A stretch of 64,000 nt of DNA from Anaerolineae bacterium (GCA_007123775.1 SLGK01000001.1:2120-66119), one strand, 5' to 3'. Positions 7,985-20,366 are shown, counted from the stretch's first letter. Numbers and translations are program-made. The notes: generated by a model from the sequence alone, not told the origin.

Positions 7985-8011
7985 TTGATAGTTGACGGTT
8001 GATAGTTATGG
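7984..8011. repeat. Heptamer array GTTGATA/GTTGACG/GTTGATA/GTTATGG
   Basis: Four phased heptamers between the stop at 7982-7984 and the scpA ATG. The last unit contains the ATG at 8008. Confidence 0.8.
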
Positions 8012-8730
8012 GTAATTACACGATTGATTTGCCACTATTCTCCGGGCCGCTGGACTTGCTGCTCCATTTGATTGAGCGGCAGGAGCTGGACATTACGGCT
8101 ATATCGCTGACGCAGGTGACAGCCCAATATCTGGCACAGATTGAGCAGTTGAAACAAAATCGGCTGGAGAATCTGATTGACTTTTTGGTGGTAGGCGCCC
8201 GGCTGACGGTGATCAAAAGCCGGGCACTGCTGCCAGAAACACTCACTTTTGCCGGGGACGAAGAGGAAGAAGAAGACCCGGCCGAGGCGTTGATCAGGCA
8301 GTTGAAGCAGTATAAGCGGTTTAAGGAGGCGGCCACCTGGCTGCATGGACGGGAGGAGCAGGGCTGGCGCACCTATTTGCGCGTGGCACCGCCGCCCAAA
8401 GTGGAGAAGCAGCTTGATTTGTCGGGGGTGACGGTGCAGACATTGTACACGGCCGTTCTCGATCTCCTCATCCGCCTTTCTGACCAGGAAGAGAGTGTGA
8501 GTCTGGTCAAACCGCGCCGCATCACCATCGAGCAGCAGCTTGGTCGGCTGCGCTACCGGTTGAAACAACAACGGCCGTTTCTTTTCCACGACCTGCTTTC
8601 GTCCCAACGGGATCGCACCGAGCTATCCGTTACCCTACTGGCCTTACTCGAGCTAATCAAGCGGCAAGAAGCCATCGCCCACCAGCCCGTCATGTTCGGC
8701 CCCATCGAAATTCGCCCCCCAGAAGTGTAG
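8008..8730 (+). CDS. scpA: Segregation and condensation protein A (kleisin)
   Basis: N-terminal FSGPLDLLLHLIERQELDITAISLTQVTAQYL is the ScpA signature; acidic linker EEEEED; size about 240 aa. The ATG at 8008 is preferred over the TTG at 7999. Confidence 0.9.
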   Translation: MGNYTIDLPLFSGPLDLLLHLIERQELDITAISLTQVTAQYLAQIEQLKQNRLENLIDFLVVGARLTVIKSRALLPETLTFAGDEEEEEDPAEALIRQLKQYKRFKEAATWLHGREEQGWRTYLRVAPPPKVEKQLDLSGVTVQTLYTAVLDLLIRLSDQEESVSLVKPRRITIEQQLGRLRYRLKQQRPFLFHDLLSSQRDRTELSVTLLALLELIKRQEAIAHQPVMFGPIEIRPPEV

Positions 8731-8798
8731 AGTGTAGAGATAGAGATAGAGATAGAGGACACGCACTACCACTCTATCTCTACACTCTATACTCTATC
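8725..8798. repeat. Inverted pair of short tandem arrays (GTGTAGA x2 plus GATAGA x3 versus CTCTATC/TCTACAC)
   Basis: Left arm 8725-8757, right arm 8772-8798, between convergent scpA and the VanZ-like gene. Both gene ends lie inside the arms. Confidence 0.85.
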
Positions 8799-9121
8799 TT
8801 TGAGGTGACCCAAGCTGCCAGACCGCCCAGGCAGTCGATGACCACATCGACCACGTTACCGTCGCGGCCGGGGATGAAGGTTTGGTGGTACTCGTCGCTG
8901 ATGGCGTAAACGGCCGTTAGCAGCAGCGCCCGATCCCATCGCCCCAGCGCGAAGTGGGCCAGCCAGGCCAGGATAAAATAGGCGACAAAATGCGCCCCCT
9001 TTTTTACCAGCAAATCAATTGCGCCAAATTGGGGAATCTCACCGGCAGGTTGATGGGAAAAATAGAAGATGACCCCCATCCAGACCAGCAGAGGCAGCCA
9101 GCGCCAGATAGCTACCACCAC
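8780..9121 (-). CDS. VanZ-like family membrane protein
   Basis: KKGAHFVAYFILAWL and DEYHQTFIPGRDGNVVDVVIDCLGG are typical VanZ motifs. 113 aa with 4 helices. Confidence 0.85.
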   Translation of the reverse strand: MVVAIWRWLPLLVWMGVIFYFSHQPAGEIPQFGAIDLLVKKGAHFVAYFILAWLAHFALGRWDRALLLTAVYAISDEYHQTFIPGRDGNVVDVVIDCLGGLAAWVTSKIEYRV

Positions 9122-9519
9122 TGCTGTTCTTTGCCGAACTGCATGATCAGATAGCCGGCTCCGGCTATTAGCAGTAAGGGAATGAGGCCATAAATGAAGG
9201 CAAAGCCACCGAAACGGAGCAGGAAAAGGAGGCCCAAAATAAACGCCCCCCAGTAAAACCAGCGGCGACGGCTAGAACTTCCTTCGGCCGGCAAATCCTC
9301 GTTGCGGGTTTTGGCGGCACTAATGCACGCCTGCCGATTGCCCACCCGCAGCACATCGCCACTCAGGGTCCATTGGCAGCCACAAAGCTCGCACTGATAA
9401 CAGGTGCGGGCCGGTTGGCCGGTCTCATAATCGGTACGCTCTAACACGCGACCACCGCAATGGTCACAATCAAAACCGCTGTCGTTCCAGTTGGTCTCAA
9501 TGTCTATGCCCATACCCAA
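9112..9519 (-). CDS. Zinc-ribbon protein with C-terminal membrane anchor (hypothetical)
   Basis: CDHCGG...CYQCELCGC gives two CxxC pairs, followed by two hydrophobic helices. Overlaps the VanZ-like start by 10 nt. Confidence 0.55.
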   Translation of the reverse strand: MGMGIDIETNWNDSGFDCDHCGGRVLERTDYETGQPARTCYQCELCGCQWTLSGDVLRVGNRQACISAAKTRNEDLPAEGSSSRRRWFYWGAFILGLLFLLRFGGFAFIYGLIPLLLIAGAGYLIMQFGKEQQWW

Positions 9520-9635
9520 AATTATAAGCCGTAATTACGTTTGCGTAAATGAATCGCTAAGAAATCTTACATTTTGAGGCTGGCTTATGTCTGGCCGTAG
9601 TGTTAAAATGAGCGGCAACAGAGGAGAAAGATCAG

Positions 9636-9914
9636 ATGAAAGTCAATTTTTACGCCACATTACGCCAGATCACCGGCCAAAAGACAGTTGAGTTTGATTT
9701 AGAGGCAGGTATCACGGTGCAACAATTGTTGGACGCCGTGCTGGCCCGCTACCCGGACATGCGGGATGATTTATTGGATGAAAACGGCCGTCTTTATGGT
9801 CACGTGCATCTATTTATAAACGGCCGTGATGCCCCCTACCTCGACGACGGCCTGGAAACCACCATCAAGCCCAATGACAAGGTAGACCTGTTCCCGGCCG
9901 TAGGTGGCGGCTGA
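9636..9914 (+). CDS. MoaD/ThiS-family ubiquitin-like sulfur-carrier protein
   Basis: 92 aa. MKVNFYATLRQITG... has a beta-grasp-like pattern and ends in Gly-Gly (FPAVGGG). Confidence 0.8.
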   Translation: MKVNFYATLRQITGQKTVEFDLEAGITVQQLLDAVLARYPDMRDDLLDENGRLYGHVHLFINGRDAPYLDDGLETTIKPNDKVDLFPAVGGG

Positions 9915-10183
9915 TGGCCGCCGAACCAATTACCCAGGTGCGTGAAATACGCGGTATTCCCCTCTGGCTATTACAAAAATATCTGGTGGAGGCGGGGGGA
10001 ACGGCCGTTGCTGACGGGCAAGTACAGGCCCACGGCTGGCAGGCCACGTTAGAGCAAATCGACGATTTTCAGATCGGTTCCTTGCGCGTGGGACAGGTAA
10101 GAATGACGGTTGTAGGAACGGCCGAACCGCTGGCCCGACTCAACGAAATCCTCGAAGTCAAACTCCTGCGTGCCGGGGGGTAA
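9914..10183 (+). CDS. Hypothetical small protein also ending in Gly-Gly
   Basis: 89-aa ORF coupled to the MoaD-like gene by a TGATG overlap at 9912-9916. C-terminus is ...KLLRAGG. Confidence 0.5.
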   Translation: MAAEPITQVREIRGIPLWLLQKYLVEAGGTAVADGQVQAHGWQATLEQIDDFQIGSLRVGQVRMTVVGTAEPLARLNEILEVKLLRAGG

Positions 10184-10240
10184 GTAGGGGCAGACCCGTG
10201 TGTCTGCCCCCTCTAGGCGAACACATGGGTTCGCCCCTAC
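10184..10240. repeat. GTAGGGGC-family palindromic element (two hairpins)
   Basis: GTAGGGGCAGAC-ccgtgt-GTCTGCCCC followed by GGCGAAC-acatgg-GTTCGCCCCTAC, starting 1 nt after the TAA stop. Confidence 0.85.
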
Positions 10241-10260
10241 ATACGTTTATTAGTTCAACA

Positions 10261-10296
10261 AAAAAGCCTGGTTTCACAAAAGAAACCAGGCCTTTC
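10261..10296. terminator. Bidirectional Rho-independent terminator between convergent genes
   Basis: Perfect 10-bp stem GCCTGGTTTC/GAAACCAGGC (10266-10275 / 10282-10291) flanked by AAAAA on the left and CTTTC on the right. It looks strongest for the minus-strand aor transcript. Confidence 0.7.
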
Positions 10297-10299
10297 AAC

Positions 10300-10343
10300 T
10301 TACATACTTACTTTCTACCTTCTGCCTTCTTAATTCTTACTTC
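10300..10343. repeat. Heptamer array (TCTACCT/TCTGCCT/TCTTAAT/TCTTACT)
   Basis: Six phased TCTNNNT heptamers immediately 3' of the aor stop. Confidence 0.7.
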
Positions 10344-12161
10344 TTATACAACGCCCAACTCTTGCAGCTTCGATTCAGGCACCACGCCATTCTCCCAGCC
10401 GCGAGCCGTGTAATACTCATCCAACATCAGGTCTAACTCACACACATGCCCTTCCGAACCGGGCATCGTCGACGGCTCTTCGGTGAAACGCTTCGGCAGA
10501 TAGTCGCTGCCCTCGCGGAAACCGGCCAGATTGTTGTAATGGCGCTCCAGGTTATAGATGCGCTCACCAGCGACCAGCACGTCATCCATGGTGAATGGCA
10601 CGCCGACCATCGCCGAATATTGGGCCGCATACTCCTCAGCCCCTTCGGCAAACGCGCTAAACTTGCACAGGTCCAGGCTGTCAGAGAAAGCGTGGATGTC
10701 TTGCAGCAGCTTGGTCAACTCACCCTTGCCTTTCCACTCCAGCGGGTCTGTTTGCAGCGGAATGAGGCCTAGCTCACTAGCGGGGGTGTAAGCCCGCAGG
10801 TGGCAGGCACCCCGGTTGCTGGTGGCATAGGCAATGCCCATACCCTTCAAACCACGCGGATCGTAGGCCGGTACACCCTGGCCTTTCACCGTCATGGCAA
10901 TTTCCATATGGCCATAATGCTCGGCCACCGCATTCACGCCGTTGGCCAGCACGTTACCAACACCCTCACGCTGGGCTACCTTCTTCATGGCTTCAATCAT
11001 ACCCATGTAGTCGCCTGATTTCAGACCACCGTCGCCATTGACAAAACCTTGCTCGGTCGCTTCGATGTAAGTACCTAACACATTGCCAATTTCGATGGCA
11101 TCCATGCCAAAGTCATTGGCCATCTGGATCATCTTGGCAATCGAGGCAGCGTTGTCGTTGCCACAGTTAGCCCCTAAAGCCCAGGCCGGCTCATACTCAA
11201 AGCTCTCCATATGGGTACCGGCAAACTCGCCCTCAGTAATCATGACCTCTTTCTTACAGGCCACGGGGCAGGCATGACAGGTCGGGTCTTTAACCAGGAT
11301 ATTTTCTTTGACGTACTCGCCACTGATGTTTTCGGCTTTCTCACCAAAGGAGGTGACACGGCCGTTATAAGCCGGTAACGCTCCCATATTGCTGGTGATG
11401 TTCATCAACACGTTGGTGCCATATACGGACAGGCCACCCTTACGCGGGCTGGTGATGTTCTTCTCGTCCATAATGGTGGCTAACGCCTGGCTGTGAGCGG
11501 GCTTCCAGGCTTCGGCGTCTTTCGGTTTGGGAAAATTCTTTTTGGCTTTGACTACCACTGCCTTAAGATTCTTACTGCCGCCGACACAACCGGTGCCGCC
11601 ACGACCGCTGGCCCGATCATCCTCATTGACCCAGCAACCATAGCGCACCATGTTTTCACCCGCCGGCCCAATCGCCATCACGGTCAAATCCTTTTCACCA
11701 TACAGATCACGGAAATGCTGAATCGTTTCATGGATGCCCTTGCCCCACAGATGGGAGGCATCTAAAAGCTCCATGCCGTCGTCGTGGATGTAGAGATAAA
11801 CAGGCTTGTCGGCTTTGCCTTTGAAAATGAGGCCATCATAGCCAGCCCAGCGCAGACGGGCGGCCGACCAGCCCCCATGATGGCTGTCGGTAACAGTGCC
11901 GGTCAGGGGAGATTTGGTGACAATCGCCATACGGCCGCTCATGTTAGCGGCCGTTCCTGTCAGGGGGCCGTTCATGAAGCAAAGCAAATTGTCGGGGGAA
12001 AGGGGGTCTACTTCGGGACCGTTTTCTAACATATAGCGCACGCCGAGACCGCGTGCGCCAATATACTTCAGTGCCCATTCTTCGGGAATAGGCTTCACCT
12101 CTATTTTACCTGCTGTCAGGTCAATGTGGGCCATTTGATTGGCGTATCCTCCGAGGTTCAT
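10344..12161 (-). CDS. aor: Aldehyde:ferredoxin oxidoreductase (tungsto/molybdo-pterin AOR family)
   Basis: 605 aa. The N-terminus MNLGGYANQMAHIDLTAGKIEVKPIPEEWALKYIGARGLG is the canonical AOR start, and the length and internal Cys motifs (CHACPVACKK) fit the [4Fe-4S]/pterin-binding family. Confidence 0.92.
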   Translation of the reverse strand: MNLGGYANQMAHIDLTAGKIEVKPIPEEWALKYIGARGLGVRYMLENGPEVDPLSPDNLLCFMNGPLTGTAANMSGRMAIVTKSPLTGTVTDSHHGGWSAARLRWAGYDGLIFKGKADKPVYLYIHDDGMELLDASHLWGKGIHETIQHFRDLYGEKDLTVMAIGPAGENMVRYGCWVNEDDRASGRGGTGCVGGSKNLKAVVVKAKKNFPKPKDAEAWKPAHSQALATIMDEKNITSPRKGGLSVYGTNVLMNITSNMGALPAYNGRVTSFGEKAENISGEYVKENILVKDPTCHACPVACKKEVMITEGEFAGTHMESFEYEPAWALGANCGNDNAASIAKMIQMANDFGMDAIEIGNVLGTYIEATEQGFVNGDGGLKSGDYMGMIEAMKKVAQREGVGNVLANGVNAVAEHYGHMEIAMTVKGQGVPAYDPRGLKGMGIAYATSNRGACHLRAYTPASELGLIPLQTDPLEWKGKGELTKLLQDIHAFSDSLDLCKFSAFAEGAEEYAAQYSAMVGVPFTMDDVLVAGERIYNLERHYNNLAGFREGSDYLPKRFTEEPSTMPGSEGHVCELDLMLDEYYTARGWENGVVPESKLQELGVV

Positions 12162-12408
12162 CTTTTGCTCCTTTTCGGCCAGTTACCGTTTGTATAACTG
12201 GCAAACTAAATAAACGTGGGACATGGATTGATAGGGGCAAAATGGGCGGAGCCAGCGACGGCCGTTTGCAGCACTGTAATAGCATAAGCGGCGGTACGTC
12301 GCTTTGATATGCCTATTGCCGCTATTTACTTGATTGTATAGAAAATCTGGTTAAACGCAATAGAAACTTTAATGCTTTCAATGATCTCATTGACGATCAA
12401 CGATTTTT

Positions 12409-12482
12409 GACGAAAGACCGAAGACGAAGGACGGAATTATTCTGGCCATCGGTCTTTCGTCCTCCGTCCTCGGTCCTCGGTC
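12409..12482. repeat. Inverted pair of heptamer arrays (GACGAAA/GACCGAA/GACGAAG/GACGGAA versus GGTCTTT/CGTCCTC/GGTCCTC)
   Basis: The arms form a long imperfect hairpin just 3' of the NrfD-like gene stop at 12513. Confidence 0.85.
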
Positions 12483-12512
12483 AGTGAATTGTTAAGCTGA
12501 CTTGAACCATAC

Positions 12513-13736
12513 CTAAAAATGTTCCCGGTAAATGGGCAAATAGCGTACGCCTAAGGTAAAGAATAGCAACGAATAAGCCAGGATGCCCAGAGAGATAGCT
12601 ACTTCGATCATGGTGGGTGAATAAGAGACGGCCACGCCGGCCGCGCCAATCACACCCGGCGACCATTCCGGCGGCACCACCAGACCAGAAAGCGTCACGT
12701 TCCAACGATTGATGATGACGCCCATAACCACTAATCCCAATGCCGCCATCAACGCCTGCTCGTTACGCCGCCAGCGCGGGTAAAGCAGTATGACCGCGGG
12801 AATAACGCCCGCCAGCAGAATTTCCCACCACCAGAAGGTAAGCGTATAAGGTGTGGTGGCCTGCAAACGGGCCAGCGCATCGGCAATGCCGGGGCTAGAG
12901 CTGTAGTAAGTGGTGGCCGCCCAGTCCCACAGCTTGATGTAGAGATAGCCCACCGTGACGTACCCCACAAAGCGGGCAATCTCACGCTGCACATCGACTG
13001 ATACTAGCCGTCGATGGCGCAGTTTGCCCGTGACCATCGTTGCCAGCAGCGTCAGCGCCAACCCGCCGGCAATGGCCGACAAGATGAACATGATGGGCAT
13101 TGACGGTTTGAACCAGATAGCCCGCCCCGTCAATACGCCATACGTAGCCCCCAGAGATGATTGATGCAGCAGCGACAAAATCATGCCGACCAAAGCAAAG
13201 AAAGGTGTCGCTTTATGCAAATTATGGCTGAAACGACGCAGCCGGTTCCAGCCGTCAAACCAGCGCGTTTCGGCAATGATAGGAATAAATTCCAGCATCA
13301 ACACAGTCGAGTAAAGGATGACGCACCAGGTAATTTCCCACAGGACCGAGTGGACGTTCCAATAAACCAGGGGATGCCAGAAGCGGTCCGGCCGGCCGAT
13401 GTCCATAGCCAGCGCGAACATGGCCGAGGTATAGCCCAAAAAACCGACAAATACGGCCGGCCGGGCCAGTGGCTCCAATCTCTCAATACGAAAGAGGTAA
13501 ACGGCCGCTGAAAAAGTAAACGCCCCCGCCCCCAGCGCAATCGCCGACAGGTCATGGGTAATCCACAAACCCCAGGGCACCTGATCACTCAAATTGGTCT
13601 GGTACAGGCCGCGCAGCAAAATCTGTAATGCTGCAATCAGCCCGCCCAGCACCATCACGCTCAGCAGTGCCAGCCAGCCCATCAATGCTTTATTCATTCG
13701 TTTAGCGCCGTTCGTTAGCTCATTGAGCGTACCCAT
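12513..13736 (-). CDS. NrfD/PsrC-family integral membrane quinone-interacting subunit
   Basis: 407 aa with about 10 helices. Shows the NrfD-type pattern (WGLWITHDLSAIALGAGAF, PDRFWHP) and is coupled by a 1-nt overlap to the FeS subunit gene. Confidence 0.85.
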   Translation of the reverse strand: MGTLNELTNGAKRMNKALMGWLALLSVMVLGGLIAALQILLRGLYQTNLSDQVPWGLWITHDLSAIALGAGAFTFSAAVYLFRIERLEPLARPAVFVGFLGYTSAMFALAMDIGRPDRFWHPLVYWNVHSVLWEITWCVILYSTVLMLEFIPIIAETRWFDGWNRLRRFSHNLHKATPFFALVGMILSLLHQSSLGATYGVLTGRAIWFKPSMPIMFILSAIAGGLALTLLATMVTGKLRHRRLVSVDVQREIARFVGYVTVGYLYIKLWDWAATTYYSSSPGIADALARLQATTPYTLTFWWWEILLAGVIPAVILLYPRWRRNEQALMAALGLVVMGVIINRWNVTLSGLVVPPEWSPGVIGAAGVAVSYSPTMIEVAISLGILAYSLLFFTLGVRYLPIYREHF

Positions 13737-14623
13737 TACTCTCGTCTCCTATCAGCCCGCACGTAATGAACGTTTGGCTCAGTGCCAAAATCTTCACGCA
13801 GCCGGAAAGTGGGATTCTCGGCCATGTAGCGGGAAACCGGACTATCCGGGTCATTGGCATCCCCAAATACTCGCGCCCCCACGGGGCAGATATTAACGCA
13901 GGCAGGGGTGGCAGACCGATCAATACCGGGCATTAACCCTTGCTCTAACCCCCGGTCGATGCGATGCACACAGAAGGTACATTTTTCTACCACGCCACGA
14001 GCACGGCGCGGCACTTCAGCCGAGCCCCAGGTTGGTTGATAATCATTGGGTGTGTCTGGCTCGCGCCAGTTAAAGCGGCGGGCATCATAGGGGCAGGCCA
14101 CCTGACAGTAACGGCAGCCAATGCAGAGATCGTAATCCATATCCACCAGGCCATCAGGCCGCACCCAGGTCGCACCCACCGGACAGACGCGCACGCAGGG
14201 TGCGTCCTGGCAGTGCAGACAAGGCCGGGTCATATAAAACTCCTGGCCAGTAATGGTTCGCTCAGGGAAGCCAACGTTCCAGCGCATAGAGTCATCGGCC
14301 ACGTCGTTGACAGCCTGGCAGCCCCAGACGCAATAGTTACAACCGATACACTTCTCCAGGTCGATAACCATGTGCCAGTCATGCTCAGGCGAGCCTTCAC
14401 CGGGATGGAGCCGTTCGCCAATGCCCTCGATGGCGTCCGCCGAGAGCGGTCCAGAGACCACGACCTGGGTAAAAGCAACGGCCGCACCGGTGGCGCCAAC
14501 AATCTTCAAAAAGTCGCGCCGGTTAAGCAGGCCCTTGTCATCCTGTTTCTTTTTTGGTTTGGGTGTCTGTTCTTGTTCGCTCATAGGGCAATCAATCCGT
14601 GTTGTCTTCCTGATCTTCTTCAT
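13736..14623 (-). CDS. Tat-exported 4x[4Fe-4S] ferredoxin-type subunit (NrfC/PsrB/HmcB-like)
   Basis: Twin-arginine signal NRRDFLKIVGATGAAVAF. Cluster motifs CIGCNYCVWGC, CLHCQDAPCVRVCP, CIGCRYCQVACP, CTFCVHR...CVNICP. An alternative start at 14584 (MSEQEQ) is possible. Confidence 0.9.
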   Translation of the reverse strand: MKKIRKTTRIDCPMSEQEQTPKPKKKQDDKGLLNRRDFLKIVGATGAAVAFTQVVVSGPLSADAIEGIGERLHPGEGSPEHDWHMVIDLEKCIGCNYCVWGCQAVNDVADDSMRWNVGFPERTITGQEFYMTRPCLHCQDAPCVRVCPVGATWVRPDGLVDMDYDLCIGCRYCQVACPYDARRFNWREPDTPNDYQPTWGSAEVPRRARGVVEKCTFCVHRIDRGLEQGLMPGIDRSATPACVNICPVGARVFGDANDPDSPVSRYMAENPTFRLREDFGTEPNVHYVRADRRRE

Positions 14624-15623
14624 CCTCTTCGCTGCGGCGACGTACGTTGTGGGCCACCAGCCAGGCGGTTGTGCCGCCTAGCACCAGGCCAATGATGCCG
14701 CCTTGGAAGAGGATGGTAATGGTGCGGCTGGCCAGAGCCGCTTCAAGGGCCTGAACCTGTTGTTCCAGAAGTGCGCCGTTTTCGGCCACGAGGCGGGCCG
14801 GCGGCCGGCGGTCGGCCAGGCTGAGAGTAGGTGTTATGCCTTCATTGGCTACGGCACTGGCGCCACGCTCCCAACCGGGCAAGGAGAAACCGGCATGGAG
14901 CGCATCGGTGTGGCAGGCCACGCAGGTTGCCGGGGTAATGGTGAACTGGTGGCCGGTGGGCACCAGGCCATCAATCGGTATCTCTTCCGGCGGGATAACG
15001 AGCATGTGGCAGTCTACGCAGCCAATGCCTTCCTGAATGTGCAGATCTTCCAGGTAGTCACCCATGTCGTCTTGATGGCAGTTGATGCACATCTCGTCGG
15101 CTACGGGGAAAAGCGGCAGTTGGCTGTGGGGATCGTGGCAGGAGACGCAGCCAATGTCGCCGGCACCGTGCCCACTGAGTCGCCATTCACTGTGGGTGGG
15201 CGTATGGCAGGCACCGCAATATTCGGTGTCACTGCGGAGCGGGATAGGAGCTGGGGGATGGTCGGGATTAACCTCACCATGACAGGCTTCGCAGGTAATG
15301 CCTTCGGCCTTGAATGTGCCGGTGGTGGCATCATAGCCGGTGGTGTGGCAGGTCAAACATTCGCCGGGGTTGCCTTGTGCTTGCCACCATTCCTGAAAAA
15401 CGGGGTCGTCGTAGGCGTGGGCGTGGGCGCTGTCTTCCCAATTGCGGGCGACGTTAAGATGGCACGAAGCGCAGTCACTAGGGGCAACGTCCTCGGGCAC
15501 GTCACGCTCTTGGGCCTGAGTCACCTGCACGGCCGTAAAGGCCAGGACGAGCAGGAATATAGCTAATCCGGTCAGGAATGGCAGTAGGTGACTGGAAATA
15601 TTGGGGTGTTTTTTTCTGGCCAT
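14592..15623 (-). CDS. Octahaem c-type cytochrome with N-terminal signal/anchor and C-terminal TM helix
   Basis: Eight CxxCH motifs (CASCH, CLTCH, CEACH, CGACH, CVSCH, CINCH, CVDCH, CVACH). Hydrophobic N-terminus and a C-terminal helix IIGLVLGGTTAWLVA. Confidence 0.9.
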   Translation of the reverse strand: MARKKHPNISSHLLPFLTGLAIFLLVLAFTAVQVTQAQERDVPEDVAPSDCASCHLNVARNWEDSAHAHAYDDPVFQEWWQAQGNPGECLTCHTTGYDATTGTFKAEGITCEACHGEVNPDHPPAPIPLRSDTEYCGACHTPTHSEWRLSGHGAGDIGCVSCHDPHSQLPLFPVADEMCINCHQDDMGDYLEDLHIQEGIGCVDCHMLVIPPEEIPIDGLVPTGHQFTITPATCVACHTDALHAGFSLPGWERGASAVANEGITPTLSLADRRPPARLVAENGALLEQQVQALEAALASRTITILFQGGIIGLVLGGTTAWLVAHNVRRRSEEDEEDQEDNTD

Positions 15624-15656
15624 ATCGTTTTCCTAATTAACTTGTTATGCGTAACT

Positions 15657-16613
15657 TCAAGCAACGGCCGTTTCCACTGCCATGGCTCTTCTACAGGCGG
15701 TTTCAAACTCAAGCAACACGGGATTACGGCCGTTATTGACAAAATTCCAAAAAGCGGTTTGAACCACACTGGCCGGATGGCGGCGCGAACGGCCGATAAA
15801 AATATCCTGCCCCATCTCTAGCCCGCTGACGCGCACCGTGACCACCCGGTCGGCCACCAGATAGTCAACAACCGATTGGGTCACAAAAGCCACCCCAATC
15901 CCTTCTTGCACGGCCAGGGCAATTGCTTCTGAATTACCCAACGTTAAGGTACCCGACAGTTGGCCCAGGGACAGGCCATGCTGCTGCAAACCATGGCCGA
16001 CGATAGCCCGTGTGCCAGACCCTTCTTCACGCATAATGAAGTTAGTCTCCAGCAGCTCGTGTGGCTCAATTATGGCCCGCTTGGACCAGGGATGGGTCGG
16101 AGGCACAATCAGCACCACCGGATCCGAAACCAGATGGCGAAACTCGGCATCGTCGCAAAAGTCGCTGGCGCTGGCCAACGCCAAATGGACATCGCCATCA
16201 CACAACATTTGCATGGATTGGGGGCGAGATGTAACGCGGCAAGTCGCCTGTACCTGCGGGTGACGCTTCAGGAAGTCGGCCAGCAGAAAGGGTAGAATGT
16301 ATTTACCACTGGTGGTGCTACAGCCCACGATCAAGTGCCCATACACCTCATCTTTCAAGGAGCGCATCGTCTCTTCAATATTGATAGACGCCCCAATTAA
16401 CTCCTGAGCCATCGGTATCAGGGCTTCGCCGGCATCGGTCAGAGAAACGCGACGGCCGCTGCGAATAAAAAGGGGCGTATCGAAATAATTCTCCAGTTCG
16501 CGGATGTGCTGGCTAACGCTGGGCTGGCTCATGTGCAACTGGCGGGCGGCAGCGGTGAAGTTTAGCGTACTAGCGGCGGTCAAAAAAACATTGAGTTGGT
16601 GTGCGTCTAACAT
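15657..16613 (-). CDS. LysR-family transcriptional regulator
   Basis: N-terminal HTH LNVFLTAASTLNFTAAARQLHMSQPSVSQHIRELE plus a LysR substrate-binding domain. The ATG at 16613 (MLDAHQL) is preferred over the TTG at 16625. Confidence 0.9.
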   Translation of the reverse strand: MLDAHQLNVFLTAASTLNFTAAARQLHMSQPSVSQHIRELENYFDTPLFIRSGRRVSLTDAGEALIPMAQELIGASINIEETMRSLKDEVYGHLIVGCSTTSGKYILPFLLADFLKRHPQVQATCRVTSRPQSMQMLCDGDVHLALASASDFCDDAEFRHLVSDPVVLIVPPTHPWSKRAIIEPHELLETNFIMREEGSGTRAIVGHGLQQHGLSLGQLSGTLTLGNSEAIALAVQEGIGVAFVTQSVVDYLVADRVVTVRVSGLEMGQDIFIGRSRRHPASVVQTAFWNFVNNGRNPVLLEFETACRRAMAVETAVA

Positions 16614-16626
16614 GACGTTCTCCAAG

Positions 16627-16688
16627 TGAAACGTAATGCGTAGAACGTAATGCGTAATTTTTACGTTTTACTTTTTACGTTTTACGCT
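16627..16688. repeat. Inverted pair of heptamer arrays (ACGTAAT/GCGTAGA versus TTACGTT/TTACTTT)
   Basis: aaacgtaatgcgtagaacgtaatgcgtaa ... ttacgttttactttttacgttttacgc, directly upstream of the LysR gene. Confidence 0.85.
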
Positions 16689-16807
16689 TCGCTTACCCGC
16701 CAGAAGCGAGCAATGACGGGCCTTTCATTTGTGAAGTATTGCACAAGCACTATTACTCTAACAAGTGATTAATGTCACATTTGTATAGTTTTTGCTTATT
16801 GAACCAA

Positions 16808-16834
16808 TAGGCAAAAACGATAGGCAAAACCTAT
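16808..16834. promoter_or_regulatory. Candidate LysR box (T-N11-A dyad) with an upstream half-repeat
   Basis: ATAGGCAAAACCTAT (16820-16834) is a dyad ATAGG-N5-CCTAT containing T-N11-A. ATAGGCAAAA is repeated at 16808-16817. It lies in the divergent region between the LysR gene and the cytochrome gene. Confidence 0.45.
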
Positions 16835-16842
16835 ACAGGCTA

Positions 16843-16870
16843 TTGATGATGGGGGGTATTTACTTATAAT
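16843..16870 (+). promoter_or_regulatory. Sigma70-like promoter for the 12-haem cytochrome/rhodanese genes
   Basis: TTGATG (16843-16848), 16-nt spacer, TATAAT (16865-16870), about 90 nt upstream of the ATG at 16963 and just downstream of the LysR-box candidate. Confidence 0.45.
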
Positions 16871-16962
16871 AGGAGTAGATAGTTACAAATTTCACAAATA
16901 GAGTGCGGCAGTTATCCACTTGGGATGCTGTTCCAAAATAGCTGCTCTATGGAGGGATTGTT

Positions 16963-18483
16963 ATGCCCCATCCGCTTAAATTAGTTGTGGGCAGTCTGGC
17001 TGCTTTTGTTTTGCTCTTTGTGATCGCCTGCAGCCAGACAGCCGTCCCGGTTGATGTGGAGCCAATGGCTCCGGAACCGGTGGCGGTCGCCACAGAAATA
17101 CCTGCGCCAGAAGTAGAAGAGCCAGAACAAACAGAAACGGCCGTGGCTCCGCCCGTTGATGAATGTGTCGCCTGTCATATCGACAAAGACCGCATCATCG
17201 CCAACCTGGCCCCGGAAGAGGAGGTAATAAAAGAATCAGAAGGGGTGGGCTGAGGTGGTGATGTGGCTCCGTTGGAGCCATGGGAAAAAGTACTCATAAG
17301 CGCAGCCTTCCTGGACACGGTGCATGGTCACATGGCCTGTACCGACTGCCATCAAGGTGAGCAATCGCCAGAAAAAGAAATTGCCCACACCGACTTAATC
17401 CGTCGGCCCAGTATGGACCCCGAAGCAGCTTGTGGCGACTGCCATACCAACATTGCTTCGGTTCAGGCCAACAGCCTGCACGCTACGTTGGCCGGTTACA
17501 CAACCGTTTTACACGCTCGCAGCGCACCGGAACATCATGACACCCTGGATGAGATGTACAACAACCATTGTGCCTCTTGCCACGCCACCTGCGGTGACTG
17601 CCACGTCACCCAACCCTACTATGTCGGTGGTGGCTTCCTAAGCGGTCACGAGTTCCAGCGCACCCCGCCCATGACCCGCACCTGCACCGGTTGTCACGGC
17701 AGCCGCGTCGGGGACGAATACCTGGGCAAGCGGGAAGGGGTACGAGCCGATGTCCACTTCCGGCAGGGGCGCATGACCTGCGTTAGCTGCCATACCGGCG
17801 ACGAGATGCACGGCCAGCCCGACAACTGTCAGGATTGCCACGCCGGGCCAGTGCCCGACGAACCCATGCCGCGTGAGCATCGCTATCATGGGGTAGCCAA
17901 GCCAAGCTGCGGTAGCTGCCATGTGGAAGTGACCACCGGCCGTGACGGCAACGAGATGCACGAGCAGCACAGTGCCGACCTCTCTTGCCAGGTCTGCCAC
18001 TCGATTACTTATAGCAATTGTGAAAGTTGCCATGTGCAGATCAGCGACGTGACGGGCAATCCGTTCTACGTGTCGCAGAATACCTTTTACACCTTTTTGA
18101 TTGGGTTGAATCCGATCCGCAGCGCACAACGGCCGTATAAATACGTGCCTGTGCGCCGCATACCGGTAGACCCCGACAGCTACGTCTTCTACGGGGAAGA
18201 TCTGTTGCCTAACTTCGACGCTTTGCCGACCTGGGCGCACGCCACGCCCCACAACATTCAGCGCAACACGCCGCAGACCGAGTCTTGCAATAGCTGTCAC
18301 GGCAATGCGGCCATCTTCCTGACCGAAGATAAGCTGCTCAAAGAGACCCATCTGGAGGCCAACCGCCCCGTTTTGGTCACAACCATTCCGCCGCTGCTGG
18401 GCACGCCCATCACGGCCACAGAAACAATCACAATAACAGATGTTTTAACGCCGACTCAGCCTGTTGAGACGGATCAACCTTAA
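16963..18483 (+). CDS. 12-haem c-type cytochrome lipoprotein, read as one gene through an in-frame TGA at 17251-17253 (Sec, read-through, or disrupted)
   Basis: ORF 16963-17253 has a lipoprotein-type signal (LLFVIACSQ), an acidic Pro/Glu linker and 1 CxxCH. ORF 17263-18483 is in the SAME frame, has 11 CxxCH and no signal peptide. Only TGA plus 3 codons separate them. Counter-evidence: an SD-like GAGGTG sits 5 nt before the GTG at 17263. Confidence 0.55.
17254..17282 (+). promoter_or_regulatory. SECIS-like hairpin downstream of the in-frame UGA
   Basis: Exactly 11 nt after TGA comes GGCTCC-GTT-GGAGCC (17265-17279). The stem extends by T-A and two G.U pairs (17262-17282) and the apical loop contains GU. 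Confidence 0.4.
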
Positions 18484-18490
18484 ACGAGTT

Positions 18491-18554
18491 AGTGCGTAGT
18501 GCGTAATGCGTAATGATAAAGGTCTACGCACTACGTACCACGCACTACGTTACG
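18491..18554. repeat. Inverted pair of heptamer arrays (GTGCGTA/GTGCGTA/ATGCGTA versus CTACGCA/CTACGTA)
   Basis: Left arm 18491-18515 and right arm 18524-18554, between the cytochrome stop and the rhodanese start. The ORF-track start at 18513 reads through it. Confidence 0.85.
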
Positions 18555-18563
18555 GAGGACAAG

Positions 18564-20366
18564 ATGAAAACCCGTTTGTACCTACTGATTACACTATTAT
18601 TGAGCCTTAGCCTGCTCCTGATGGCTTGTAACGGTGCGGCCGATCCCGTCGTGGAAGAGCCGCCGGCCGTTGAAGTCGAAGAACCGGCCGTGCCGGAACC
18701 AGAAGTTGAAGAGCCGGTTGAGGAAGTGGTAGAACCAGAACCGGAACCAGAACCGGCCTTTACTGAAGAGGATTTGGATGCGGCCGTTAACGCCATGCTA
18801 GGCCGGATGACCGCCTACAACACCATTCGCCCCGACGCCCTCAATGAAGCCCTGGCCGAAGACCCGCCCTTCATTCTGGACGTGCGTCGGCCGGCCGAAC
18901 TGGAAGAGCTAGGCCACATCCCCGGTGCGGTTCACGTACCCCTGAACGATCTGCACGAAAATCTGGATAAACTACCCAGCTTTGATACCCCCATCGTCAC
19001 CTACTGTGCCGTAGGCTGGCGCTGCACCATTGCCATGACCGCCATGGAAACCTTGGGCTGGCAAAATGTGCGTGCGCTGGTTGGCGGCAGCTTTGGCGGC
19101 TGGGCCAATGCCGGATATGAAATCGTAGACGGCTTCCCGCCTGAAGCCGAAGTCCTCAATGCGGCCAGCCCTGACCCAGAACTGCTGGCTGAAGTACAAC
19201 AAATGATGGCCAATATCCCGCAAGGCTTTGGCGTTATCACCACCGACGACCTGTTTGCCAAACTGGTTGATACCCCGGACGTGCTGTTGATTGACGTGCG
19301 CCGCGCCGAAGAATTGGAAGATAACGGCATCATTGAATCGGACAACCAGATGCAAATTGCCATTGAAGATTTTGTTGCCATGCGGGACATGTGGCCGCAA
19401 GATAAGGATGCGGAGATCATCATCTACTGTGGCACCGGCCACCGTTCCACCATTGCCATGACCATCATGTGGATGTATGGCTATACCGACGTCCGCAGCA
19501 TGAAGGGTGGTATTGCCGAATGGCGTGCCGATGGCTACCCCGTTCTGGGTGGCGCCGAGCCGGAAGAGGCTGACCTGGATGCCGCTTTTGCCAATTTCAT
19601 CGACAATATGGTGGCTTATAACACCATCCGGCCGGCCGCTTTGAATGAGCTGCTGATCGAAGACCCGCCTCCCTTCATCCTCGACGTGCGCCGTCCGGCC
19701 GAATTGGAAGAACTGGGCCACATTGAAGGTGCCGTTCACATCCCCCTGCCCGAAATTGGGGATAACCTCGACCTGCTGCCCAGCTTTGACACGCCGATTG
19801 TGACCTACTGTGCCGTAGGCTGGCGCTGCACCATTGCCATGACCGCTCTAAGCGCCATGGGCTGGACTGACGTCAAGGCGTTGGTCGGTGGCAGCTTTGG
19901 TGGTTGGGTCAATGAAGGCTACCCGGTCGTTGACGGCCCGGCGGCTGAGGCGATGGTTCTTAACGCAGCCAGCCCCGACCCGGCTCTGGCCGAAGCATTG
20001 GGCGATATGCTGCGGAATGTGCCGCAGGGCTTTGGCGTCATCACCACCGATGACCTGGCCCTGGAGTTGATTGACAAGCCAGAGATGCAGTTGATCGACG
20101 TGCGGACAGTAGGTGAGGTTGAGGAAAACGGCCGTATCGAATCTGACGGCCAACTGCTCATCCCCATCGAAGCATTCATTGAGCGCATGGATGAATGGCC
20201 GGCCGACAAAGATATGGAAATTGTTATCTACTGTGGCACCGGCCACCGCTCGACCATTGCCATGACCATCATGTGGAGCTATGGCTATACCAACGTCCGC
20301 AGCATGAAGGGTGGCCTGGCGGAATGGAGTGCTGATGGCTATCCGGTGGTGGAGTTTGCTCAATAG
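18564..20366 (+). CDS. Lipoprotein with four rhodanese (sulfurtransferase) domains
   Basis: Signal plus lipobox LLLMACNG preceded by GGAGGA. Acidic PE-rich linker. Two CAVGWRC and two CGTGHRS active-site loops. It is built as a tandem duplication of a two-domain unit. Confidence 0.88.
   Translation: MKTRLYLLITLLLSLSLLLMACNGAADPVVEEPPAVEVEEPAVPEPEVEEPVEEVVEPEPEPEPAFTEEDLDAAVNAMLGRMTAYNTIRPDALNEALAEDPPFILDVRRPAELEELGHIPGAVHVPLNDLHENLDKLPSFDTPIVTYCAVGWRCTIAMTAMETLGWQNVRALVGGSFGGWANAGYEIVDGFPPEAEVLNAASPDPELLAEVQQMMANIPQGFGVITTDDLFAKLVDTPDVLLIDVRRAEELEDNGIIESDNQMQIAIEDFVAMRDMWPQDKDAEIIIYCGTGHRSTIAMTIMWMYGYTDVRSMKGGIAEWRADGYPVLGGAEPEEADLDAAFANFIDNMVAYNTIRPAALNELLIEDPPPFILDVRRPAELEELGHIEGAVHIPLPEIGDNLDLLPSFDTPIVTYCAVGWRCTIAMTALSAMGWTDVKALVGGSFGGWVNEGYPVVDGPAAEAMVLNAASPDPALAEALGDMLRNVPQGFGVITTDDLALELIDKPEMQLIDVRTVGEVEENGRIESDGQLLIPIEAFIERMDEWPADKDMEIVIYCGTGHRSTIAMTIMWSYGYTNVRSMKGGLAEWSADGYPVVEFAQ

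Follow-up and report, generated by a model that had tools for sequence, protein, structure and literature searches.

In Wolinella succinogenes, the exported rhodanese-type protein Sud feeds sulfane sulfur to the quinol-linked PsrABC. In Geobacter sulfurreducens, MccSep (ExtKL, GSU2937-2936) is a pentahaem selenocysteine (Sec) reductase of polysulfide, and also of selenite, with a His/Cys-ligated active haem; polysulfide is its preferred substrate, and the ext cluster also encodes a rhodanese lipoprotein, ExtH (PMC13510729). Here we analyse a locus with likenesses to both, located at positions 12513-20366 of a 64,000-nucleotide (nt) stretch of DNA from an Anaerolineae bacterium (GCA_007123775.1, SLGK01000001.1:2120-66119; the whole stretch is called the window below). 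The locus encodes a 12-haem lipoprotein cytochrome c with an in-frame UGA codon predicted to specify Sec, a four-domain rhodanese lipoprotein, a LysR-family regulator, and a trio formed by an octahaem cytochrome c, an NrfC-like iron-sulfur subunit and an NrfD-family membrane subunit. A Sec cytochrome encoded beside a rhodanese and a quinone-linked trio in dozens of Anaerolineae species looks like a molybdenum (Mo)-free sulfur (or selenium) respiratory chain. We assign a probability of roughly 45% to the reading that the locus encodes a Mo-free, quinone-linked chain ending in a selenoenzyme that reduces sulfane sulfur.

Gene content was assigned from an open reading frame (ORF) map, translations, a Pfam profile search and NCBIfam equivalog models. 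To describe the neighbourhood, the proteins of the window were compared by tblastn with 80 species-representative loci, supplied by a search that found at least 588 loci. The distribution of the cytochrome gene was surveyed in an even sample of 301 class genomes (176 genera) and in a separate phylum-wide sample of 301 genomes, mostly from other classes. Conservation and covariation of the hairpin described below were assessed over 66 sequences.

A conserved in-frame UGA in the 12-haem cytochrome gene

A reading made from the sequence alone (the sequence-only reading) had placed a 12-haem lipoprotein at 16963-18483 on the plus strand. The 12 CXXCH motifs and the lipobox are present, but they belong to one protein only if a TGA codon is read through. 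Two ORFs (16963-17253 and 17263-18483) share one frame and are split by this TGA at 17251-17253. The part before the TGA comprises 96 residues and carries one CXXCH motif and the lipobox (..VIAC23), which is the sole export signal. The part after it carries 11 CXXCH motifs and has no signal peptide, and therefore could not mature alone. With UGA read as Sec, the gene encodes a protein of 506 amino acids (aa) in which the lipobox is followed by a Pro/Glu-rich tether and Sec stands at residue 97 in the motif GVG-U-GG (surrounding peptide GVG-U-GGDVAPLEPWEK).

Orthologues keep the TGA at a single alignment column: 77 of the 80 species loci have it there and none has TAA or TAG, and the surrounding motif across orthologues is E-[SN]-x-G-[VE]-G-U-G-G-[ED]-V-A-P-L-E-P-W-E-K-V. 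In the class survey the gene was found in 66 of 301 genomes (22%) and in 42 of 176 genera, and about 60 of the 66 matches contain one internal TGA. Outside the class, only two genomes of the phylum-wide sample carry it. Most of the approximately 2,000 database homologues are 380-415 aa long and cover about 75% of the read-through protein because gene callers cut them at the same TGA. Several truncated cytochrome fragments (P0017, P0049, P0055 etc.) are labelled 'thiosulfate/3-mercaptopyruvate sulfurtransferase' by JGI, which is probably annotation spill-over from the adjoining rhodanese.

A candidate selenocysteine insertion sequence (SECIS) hairpin lies at 17262-17282 on the plus strand. Its core, GUGGCUCC-GUU-GGAGCC (GGCUCC-GUU-GGAGCC, 17265-17279), forms a 6-bp stem (17265-17270 with 17274-17279) closed by the loop GUU at 17271-17273, 11 nt 3′ of the UGA. 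In the minimal SECIS of Escherichia coli fdhF, the upper stem-loop is likewise placed 11 nt from the UGA, and the hairpin fits this E. coli-type minimal SECIS. It is more stable than shuffled sequence (z -2.8). Within the core GTGGCTCCGTTGGAGCC, all synonymous sites are invariant in the 66 sequences except for one covarying pair, so that Val is always GUG, Ala GCU, Pro CCG, Leu UUG and Glu GAG, whereas synonymous sites just outside vary freely. In three sequences the covarying stem pair shows a compensatory swap of G-C for C-G, by which VAPLEP becomes VPPLEA in the protein; two further sequences have G-U at this pair. Of all hairpin cells, 95% are paired, a share that falls to 38-50% if the 3′ partners are shifted. 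At gathering thresholds, Rfam reported a single tRNA and no SECIS family in the window.

The genome encodes a tRNA-Sec (anticodon UCA) as well as SelB (348 bits), SelA (568 bits) and SelD (377 bits). Since the position is conserved as TGA only, the hairpin is selected and covarying, and the tRNA-Sec/SelA/SelB/SelD set is complete, we conclude with very high confidence from these comparisons that the UGA at 17251-17253 is decoded as Sec. SelB was found in 258 of the 301 class genomes, and one genome without detectable SelB (G129) has a non-TGA cytochrome. The hairpin is decayed in non-TGA homologues and intact in one form with TGT (Cys) at the Sec position (L097), which points to a recent Sec-to-Cys conversion. 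Cys also replaces Sec in P0033, P0096 and P0110 (GxGCGG) and, as TGC, in L104. Two further observations concern the Sec machinery. The SelD gene (G000:C234:2950-3885, L111) has one in-frame TGA, and the SelD of this genome is probably itself Sec-containing. The tRNA-Sec gene (G000:C288, L001 1071-1599) adjoins a tRNA-Cys/Gly/Phe cluster on the opposite strand.

The only conserved Cys of the cytochrome outside the CXXCH motifs is the lipobox Cys23. Thirteen non-motif His residues are conserved across orthologues, which could be enough for bis-His ligation of all 12 haems. Weak matches to MtrC/OmcA-like domains were obtained. An AlphaFold 2 model reached a predicted local distance difference test (pLDDT) score of 79 and a predicted template modelling (pTM) score of 0.72. 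A Foldseek search of the PDB with this model gave no match, and the PDB sequence search gave insignificant matches only (best E = 0.033). Likewise, no NCBIfam selenoprotein model matched the cytochrome. A review of the prokaryotic selenoproteome from May 2026 lists as cytochrome selenoproteins only ExtKL and the GSU2204-family, UshA-like and OTR-type proteins; none of the models of these four matched the 12-haem cytochrome. Literature searches for a Sec cytochrome in Chloroflexota or Anaerolineae, or for the present gene combination, returned nothing relevant, in agreement with the sequence-only reading, which had not recognised the combination as a known one. Judged by sequence, the 12-haem Sec cytochrome is a new, widespread and misannotated selenoprotein family. 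A new model for it would have to be added to pipelines for genome annotation and to catalogues of selenoproteomes; nearly every database lists it as a truncated 'hypothetical protein' of 380-415 aa.

Conserved neighbourhood and linkage of selenocysteine to the rhodanese

The rhodanese gene stands directly downstream of the cytochrome gene in 75 of the 80 loci. Of the five loci that deviate, three are non-TGA loci (one truncated) and two are TGA contigs that are truncated. The LysR gene, too, is a neighbour in 75 of 80. The trio adjoins in divergent orientation in 53-54 of 80, with 55-75% identity. Among the 12 genomes without an adjacent trio, eight carry an orthologous three-gene unit elsewhere. 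No other gene family was found in more than 12 of the 80 loci. With its recurrence in dozens of species, the arrangement is far beyond chance, and on comparative grounds the six genes form a conserved unit. The two divergent operons (rhodanese 75/80, LysR 75/80, trio ~54/80) are therefore co-conserved, which removes the condition that the sequence-only reading had set for its own refutation, namely operons that never occur together.

Full-length homologues without the TGA carry either C at the Sec position or, which is unusual, one of W, L, F, H and M; I also occurs. We examined seven forms without a chalcogen at this position, carrying W (L059, L098), L (L101, L102), H (L103 and one copy in L100) or F (L049). 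None of the seven has an adjacent rhodanese, while six have an adjacent trio and most also the LysR gene; in L101, the contig ends just upstream. Of the Cys forms, only L097 has sequence downstream, and there the rhodanese is retained. Both situations occur together in L100 (Logan SRR8357215 contig, 8001-16790), where a His paralogue lies beside the trio and a Sec paralogue has a perfect SECIS and the rhodanese. On the same contig, the Sec paralogue and its rhodanese are placed under a second LysR gene and are followed by a SulP-STAS-rhodanese fusion transporter.

In total, chalcogen and rhodanese are both present in 58 cases, both absent in 7 and discordant in none (Fisher p = 1.4e-9, uncorrected). 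This comparison shows the linkage of Sec or Cys to the rhodanese. In the tree, the non-Sec forms are nested in Sec clades with at least 5-7 changes, and Sec is therefore ancestral. We infer from this distribution that the 12-haem cytochrome and the trio would form an electron-transfer core, with Sec and the rhodanese as a coupled catalytic add-on. Because the residue and the rhodanese track each other, Sec97 is most likely the catalytic or carrier site. The sequence-only reading had expected the terminal site to be a haem or a rhodanese cysteine; it had overlooked the conserved Sec, and the 58/7/0 distribution speaks against it on this point. The repeated joint loss of Sec and rhodanese provides a natural experiment, by which the mechanism is directly testable.

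The rhodanese lipoprotein (18513-20366, plus strand, 617 aa) contains four PF00581 domains. Its likely start is Met18 at 18564 (MKTRLYLLITLLLSLSLLLMAC), after which a Pro/Glu-rich tether follows. Each domain has a CxxGxR catalytic loop, the loops being CAVGWR and CGTGHR, two of each. Four such loops are found in 62 of the 75 rhodanese orthologues, and two species (L057, L072) have six domains. It scores above the threshold of NF041203, the 'rhodanese-related (seleno)protein' model. Its two halves are 70% identical here and 48-85% identical within other species (L017-L096), whereas orthologous halves are only about 42-46% identical between species, with no positional preference. This pattern indicates concerted evolution or gene conversion, as judged from the alignments. 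A recent tandem duplication was considered as the origin of the four domains and rejected, since four is the norm of the family and positional orthology between species is lacking. Both the cytochrome and the rhodanese have long Pro/Glu/Val-rich tethers after the lipid-modified Cys, which is consistent with a location at some distance from the membrane surface.

The trio is encoded on the minus strand. The octahaem cytochrome c (14592-15623, 343 aa) has eight CXXCH motifs, an N-terminal signal and a C-terminal transmembrane anchor, and matches the Pfam families Cytochrome_C7/C554. The NrfC/DsrO/QrcC-like subunit (13736-14623, 295 aa) is predicted to carry four [4Fe-4S] clusters (Fer4_11/Fer4_7) and to be exported by the twin-arginine translocation (Tat) pathway (RRDFLK, PF10518 TAT_signal). 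The NrfD-family integral membrane subunit (12513-13736, 407 aa; PF03916 98.7 bits, gathering threshold 25.8) would interact with quinone. According to their coordinates, the genes overlap by 32 nt and 1 nt; genes, coordinates, overlaps and the count of eight haems in the sequence-only reading all agree with the ORF map, translations and Pfam. The best NCBIfam match of NrfD is QrcD with 288 bits (cut-off 570), followed by HmcC, and NrfD orthologues are 61-75% identical in about 54 of the 80 loci. The PDB sequence search with NrfD gave no match. The NrfC-like subunit scores 205 bits against the DsrO model NF045797 (cut-off 200) and 169 bits against QrcC (cut-off 400); its PDB relatives are the C-terminal domain of ActB, ArrB and PsrB. 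The DsrP model gave 55 against a cut-off of 350 and no dsrMKJ genes lie near the trio, and from the scores the DsrO match is read as a marginal cross-hit.

Three known complexes were considered for the trio and rejected. It is distinct from alternative complex III (ACIII) and not a fragment of an act operon: the NrfC-like subunit is an FeS-only protein without the molybdopterin-like domain, whose absence the sequence-only reading had noted, the cluster has one NrfD gene, no act genes are near, and the flanking genes are unrelated and vary across the 80 loci. It is not a fragment or member of a Qrc complex, since a QrcB-like gene is missing and both QrcC and QrcD are below their cut-offs. Membership of PsrABC, PhsABC or TtrABC was rejected because no gene for an A subunit with Mo-bis(pyranopterin guanine dinucleotide) (Mo-bisPGD) is present in the cluster of the window or in the conserved neighbourhood. 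A cytoplasmic tungsten-type aldehyde:ferredoxin oxidoreductase (AOR; AFOR_N/AFOR_C) at 10344-12161 adjoins the cluster. This AOR and an RlmL-like methyltransferase are co-conserved in none of the 80 loci and were rejected as cluster members, which leaves the conserved cluster without a catalytic molybdoenzyme, as had been claimed. Two small ORFs stand beside the AOR gene (window 9636-12161).

The LysR-family regulator (15657-16625, minus strand; HTH_1 and LysR_substrate domains) is divergent from the cytochrome gene that starts at 16963 on the plus strand. Its best NCBIfam match is the 'selenium metabolism-associated LysR' model NF040786 with 195 bits, under the cut-off of 250. The divergent control region between them (16626-16962) contains tandem direct repeats of 13-15 nt and a promoter-like site. 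The repeats are AACGTAATGCGTA, present twice at 16630 and 16644, and TTTTACGTTTTAC, present twice at 16659 and 16673; a third set, AAYSRATAGGCAA, is present twice at 16802 and 16815 (two AATAGGCAA-like units). A promoter-like TTGATG-16-TATAAT follows at 16843-16870 on the plus strand. The direct repeats may be operator sites of the LysR regulator.

Other genes recur sporadically beside the cluster. A protein of about 700 aa with 4Fe-4S and CCG domains (HdrD/DsrK-like) is encoded just 3′ of the rhodanese in about 10 of the 80 loci (e.g. L037:13123-15243), which is a hint at disulfide or persulfide chemistry. Sporadic neighbouring cytochromes include a Cytochrome_cB-containing protein of 557 aa (L047:6936-8606), a multihaem protein of 750 aa (L040:13363-15612) and a cbb3-type monohaem fusion (L066:3386-5401). 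CcmB also recurs beside the cluster (L093).

Proposed electron chain and alternative readings

A link to sulfane-sulfur or selenium chemistry, already suggested by the sequence-only reading, is still the best reading of the locus. We infer its substrate, reductive direction, carrier order and Se-S chemistry as follows. NrfD would exchange electrons and protons with menaquinol, and the Tat-exported NrfC-like subunit and then the membrane-anchored octahaem cytochrome would pass the electrons outward. They would reach the tethered 12-haem lipoprotein cytochrome at the outer face of the cytoplasmic membrane (Chloroflexota are taken as monoderm), in which Sec97 would be located in the Gly-flanked loop G-V-G-U-G-G that directly follows the first, terminal haem. 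The tetra-rhodanese, presumably co-transcribed, would capture sulfane sulfur (polysulfide, S0-derived or thiosulfate sulfur) as cysteine persulfides. The selenolate could then attack these persulfides to give an Se-S adduct, which electrons from the haem chain would cleave with release of sulfide. A more specific version of the last steps is tentative and, in our estimate, doubtful: Sec97, on a flexible Gly-flanked arm beside the terminal haem, might act as a covalent selenium-based sulfur carrier that is loaded by the four rhodanese persulfides and discharged by a bis-His haem.

Several points weigh against this chain. What points to the substrate is the rhodanese partner together with the parallel to MccSep and Sud, and nothing else. 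The cytochrome, unlike MccSep, has no conserved haem-ligating Cys, and none of its haems stands out as an open or His/Cys-ligated active site. In the AlphaFold 2 model the Sec loop has a pLDDT of 62, i.e. it is of low confidence and flexible. Substitution of Sec by W, L, F, H or M has occurred repeatedly, which implies that the cytochrome still has a function when Sec is absent, and only 3-4 phylogenetically independent contrasts, all of them concordant, back the link between Sec and the rhodanese. Finally, at standard potentials the transfer of electrons from menaquinol to polysulfide is thermodynamically uphill, and the closest match of NrfD, QrcD, is a quinone-reducing protein. Both make the opposite direction possible.

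If the chain ran in this opposite direction, sulfide or sulfane sulfur would be oxidised at Sec and the rhodanese, electrons would flow inward through both cytochromes, and NrfCD would reduce menaquinone in a Qrc-like manner. Oxidation of sulfide by menaquinone is exergonic according to established potentials, and QrcD, with which NrfD shares its 288 bits, is a subunit of a cytochrome:menaquinone oxidoreductase. The related haem enzymes TsdA and SoxAX are oxidative as well (PMC13510729). The QrcD score is, however, far under the family cut-off, and family likeness does not fix direction. The sole characterised Sec multihaem enzyme is a reductase, and Sox, Dsr or SQR genes were found in none of the 80 neighbourhoods. 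We therefore regard the oxidative direction as unlikely.

The reductive chain may alternatively act on selenium itself, as a selenite or tellurite reductase or detoxification system: Se bound to the rhodanese in perselenide form would be reduced to Se(0) by the Sec cytochrome. It is in line with such a function that MccSep also reduces selenite, that ExtH and ExtI of Geobacter are implicated in selenite and tellurite handling, that NF040786 is the closest model of the LysR regulator and that the rhodanese is above the NF041203 cut-off. On the other hand, the LysR score of 195 is under the cut-off of 250, and MccSep preferred polysulfide. Selenite is scarce in most habitats of the family, yet the locus is present in 22% of the class genomes. 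Selenite or tellurite as the dedicated substrate thus appears improbable.

The homologues that lack Sec and rhodanese and keep the trio and the LysR gene imply that the core works alone. They would fit a general extracellular conduit to Fe(III), humics, electrodes or partner cells, in which Sec and the rhodanese are accessory, e.g. protective or regulatory. Long lipoprotein tethers would suit a reach beyond the wall, and the weak MtrC/OmcA-like matches point the same way. But Sec is costly and ancestral and is kept in 77 of 80 species, and the rhodanese is kept exactly where Sec or Cys is kept, which argues for a specific chalcogen-dependent reaction and makes a mere conduit a quite improbable account. 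With a true stop at the TGA, as annotated by gene callers in almost all database entries, the locus would contain a monohaem lipoprotein of 96 aa beside a separate protein with 11 haems, or else a pseudogene. This reading has next to no likelihood given a downstream part without export signal, TGA only (no TAA/TAG) in 77 species, the covarying hairpin and the complete Sec machinery.

Comparison with described systems

Anaerolineae are common in sludge, sediments and groundwater, and the lineage is usually treated as fermentative. The locus offers a candidate molecular basis for Mo-independent sulfur/polysulfide (or selenium) respiration in this lineage; if the seleno-carrier reading were true, Anaerolineae would be unrecognised sulfur respirers. 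The cytochrome would also constitute a second, unrelated multihaem selenoenzyme family beside that of Geobacter, which was characterised in 2026.

The closest parallel is MccSep. Both are extracytoplasmic multihaem c-type proteins with one Sec, both are misannotated as two ORFs split by UGA, and both have a rhodanese lipoprotein encoded in the cluster. Membership of the MccSep/ExtKL family was tested and rejected: there was no NF040886 match at E<=0.001, no phmmer match at E<=1 to the PDB entries 9wt8/9wt9, both of which the search covered, and no Foldseek match. The cytochrome described here has 12 haems, whereas MccSep has five CxxCH motifs. Its Sec is residue 97 of 506 in a G-x-G-U-G-G loop, compared to a C-terminal Ig-like domain (DGUP) in MccSep, and it has no conserved haem-ligating Cys, whereas a distal Cys ligand is found on the active haem of MccSep. 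In addition, it is a Chloroflexota lipoprotein genetically tied to an octahaem-NrfC-NrfD module. The 12-haem Sec cytochrome would thus be analogous, not homologous, to MccSep/ExtH.

With Sud and PsrABC, the locus shares a rhodanese-type carrier and subunits of the NrfC/NrfD type (PsrB/PsrC). The Mo-bisPGD subunit PsrA is replaced here by two multihaem cytochromes, one of which is a selenoprotein. The trio in turn resembles Qrc, Hmc and Nhc and the ActABC core of ACIII, as it combines a multihaem cytochrome anchored in the membrane with a four-cluster protein in the periplasm and a subunit of the NrfD type. It differs from them in lacking the molybdopterin-like domain of QrcB/ActB, a second NrfD-like subunit, and ActD/E/F or HmcD/E/F. 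All its equivalog scores are below the cut-offs apart from the marginal DsrO match, and its cytochrome is octahaem with a C-terminal anchor.

A further resemblance, which we treat as a lead, is to SoxY, whose C-terminal GGCGG arm carries sulfur intermediates covalently. In both cases a reactive chalcogen flanked by Gly is placed on a flexible segment. The residue here is Sec instead of Cys and lies within a multihaem cytochrome, and the two proteins have no sequence homology. A haem-wired seleno-carrier that uses neither a Cys-ligated haem nor Mo would differ mechanistically from MccSep, Psr and Sox alike.

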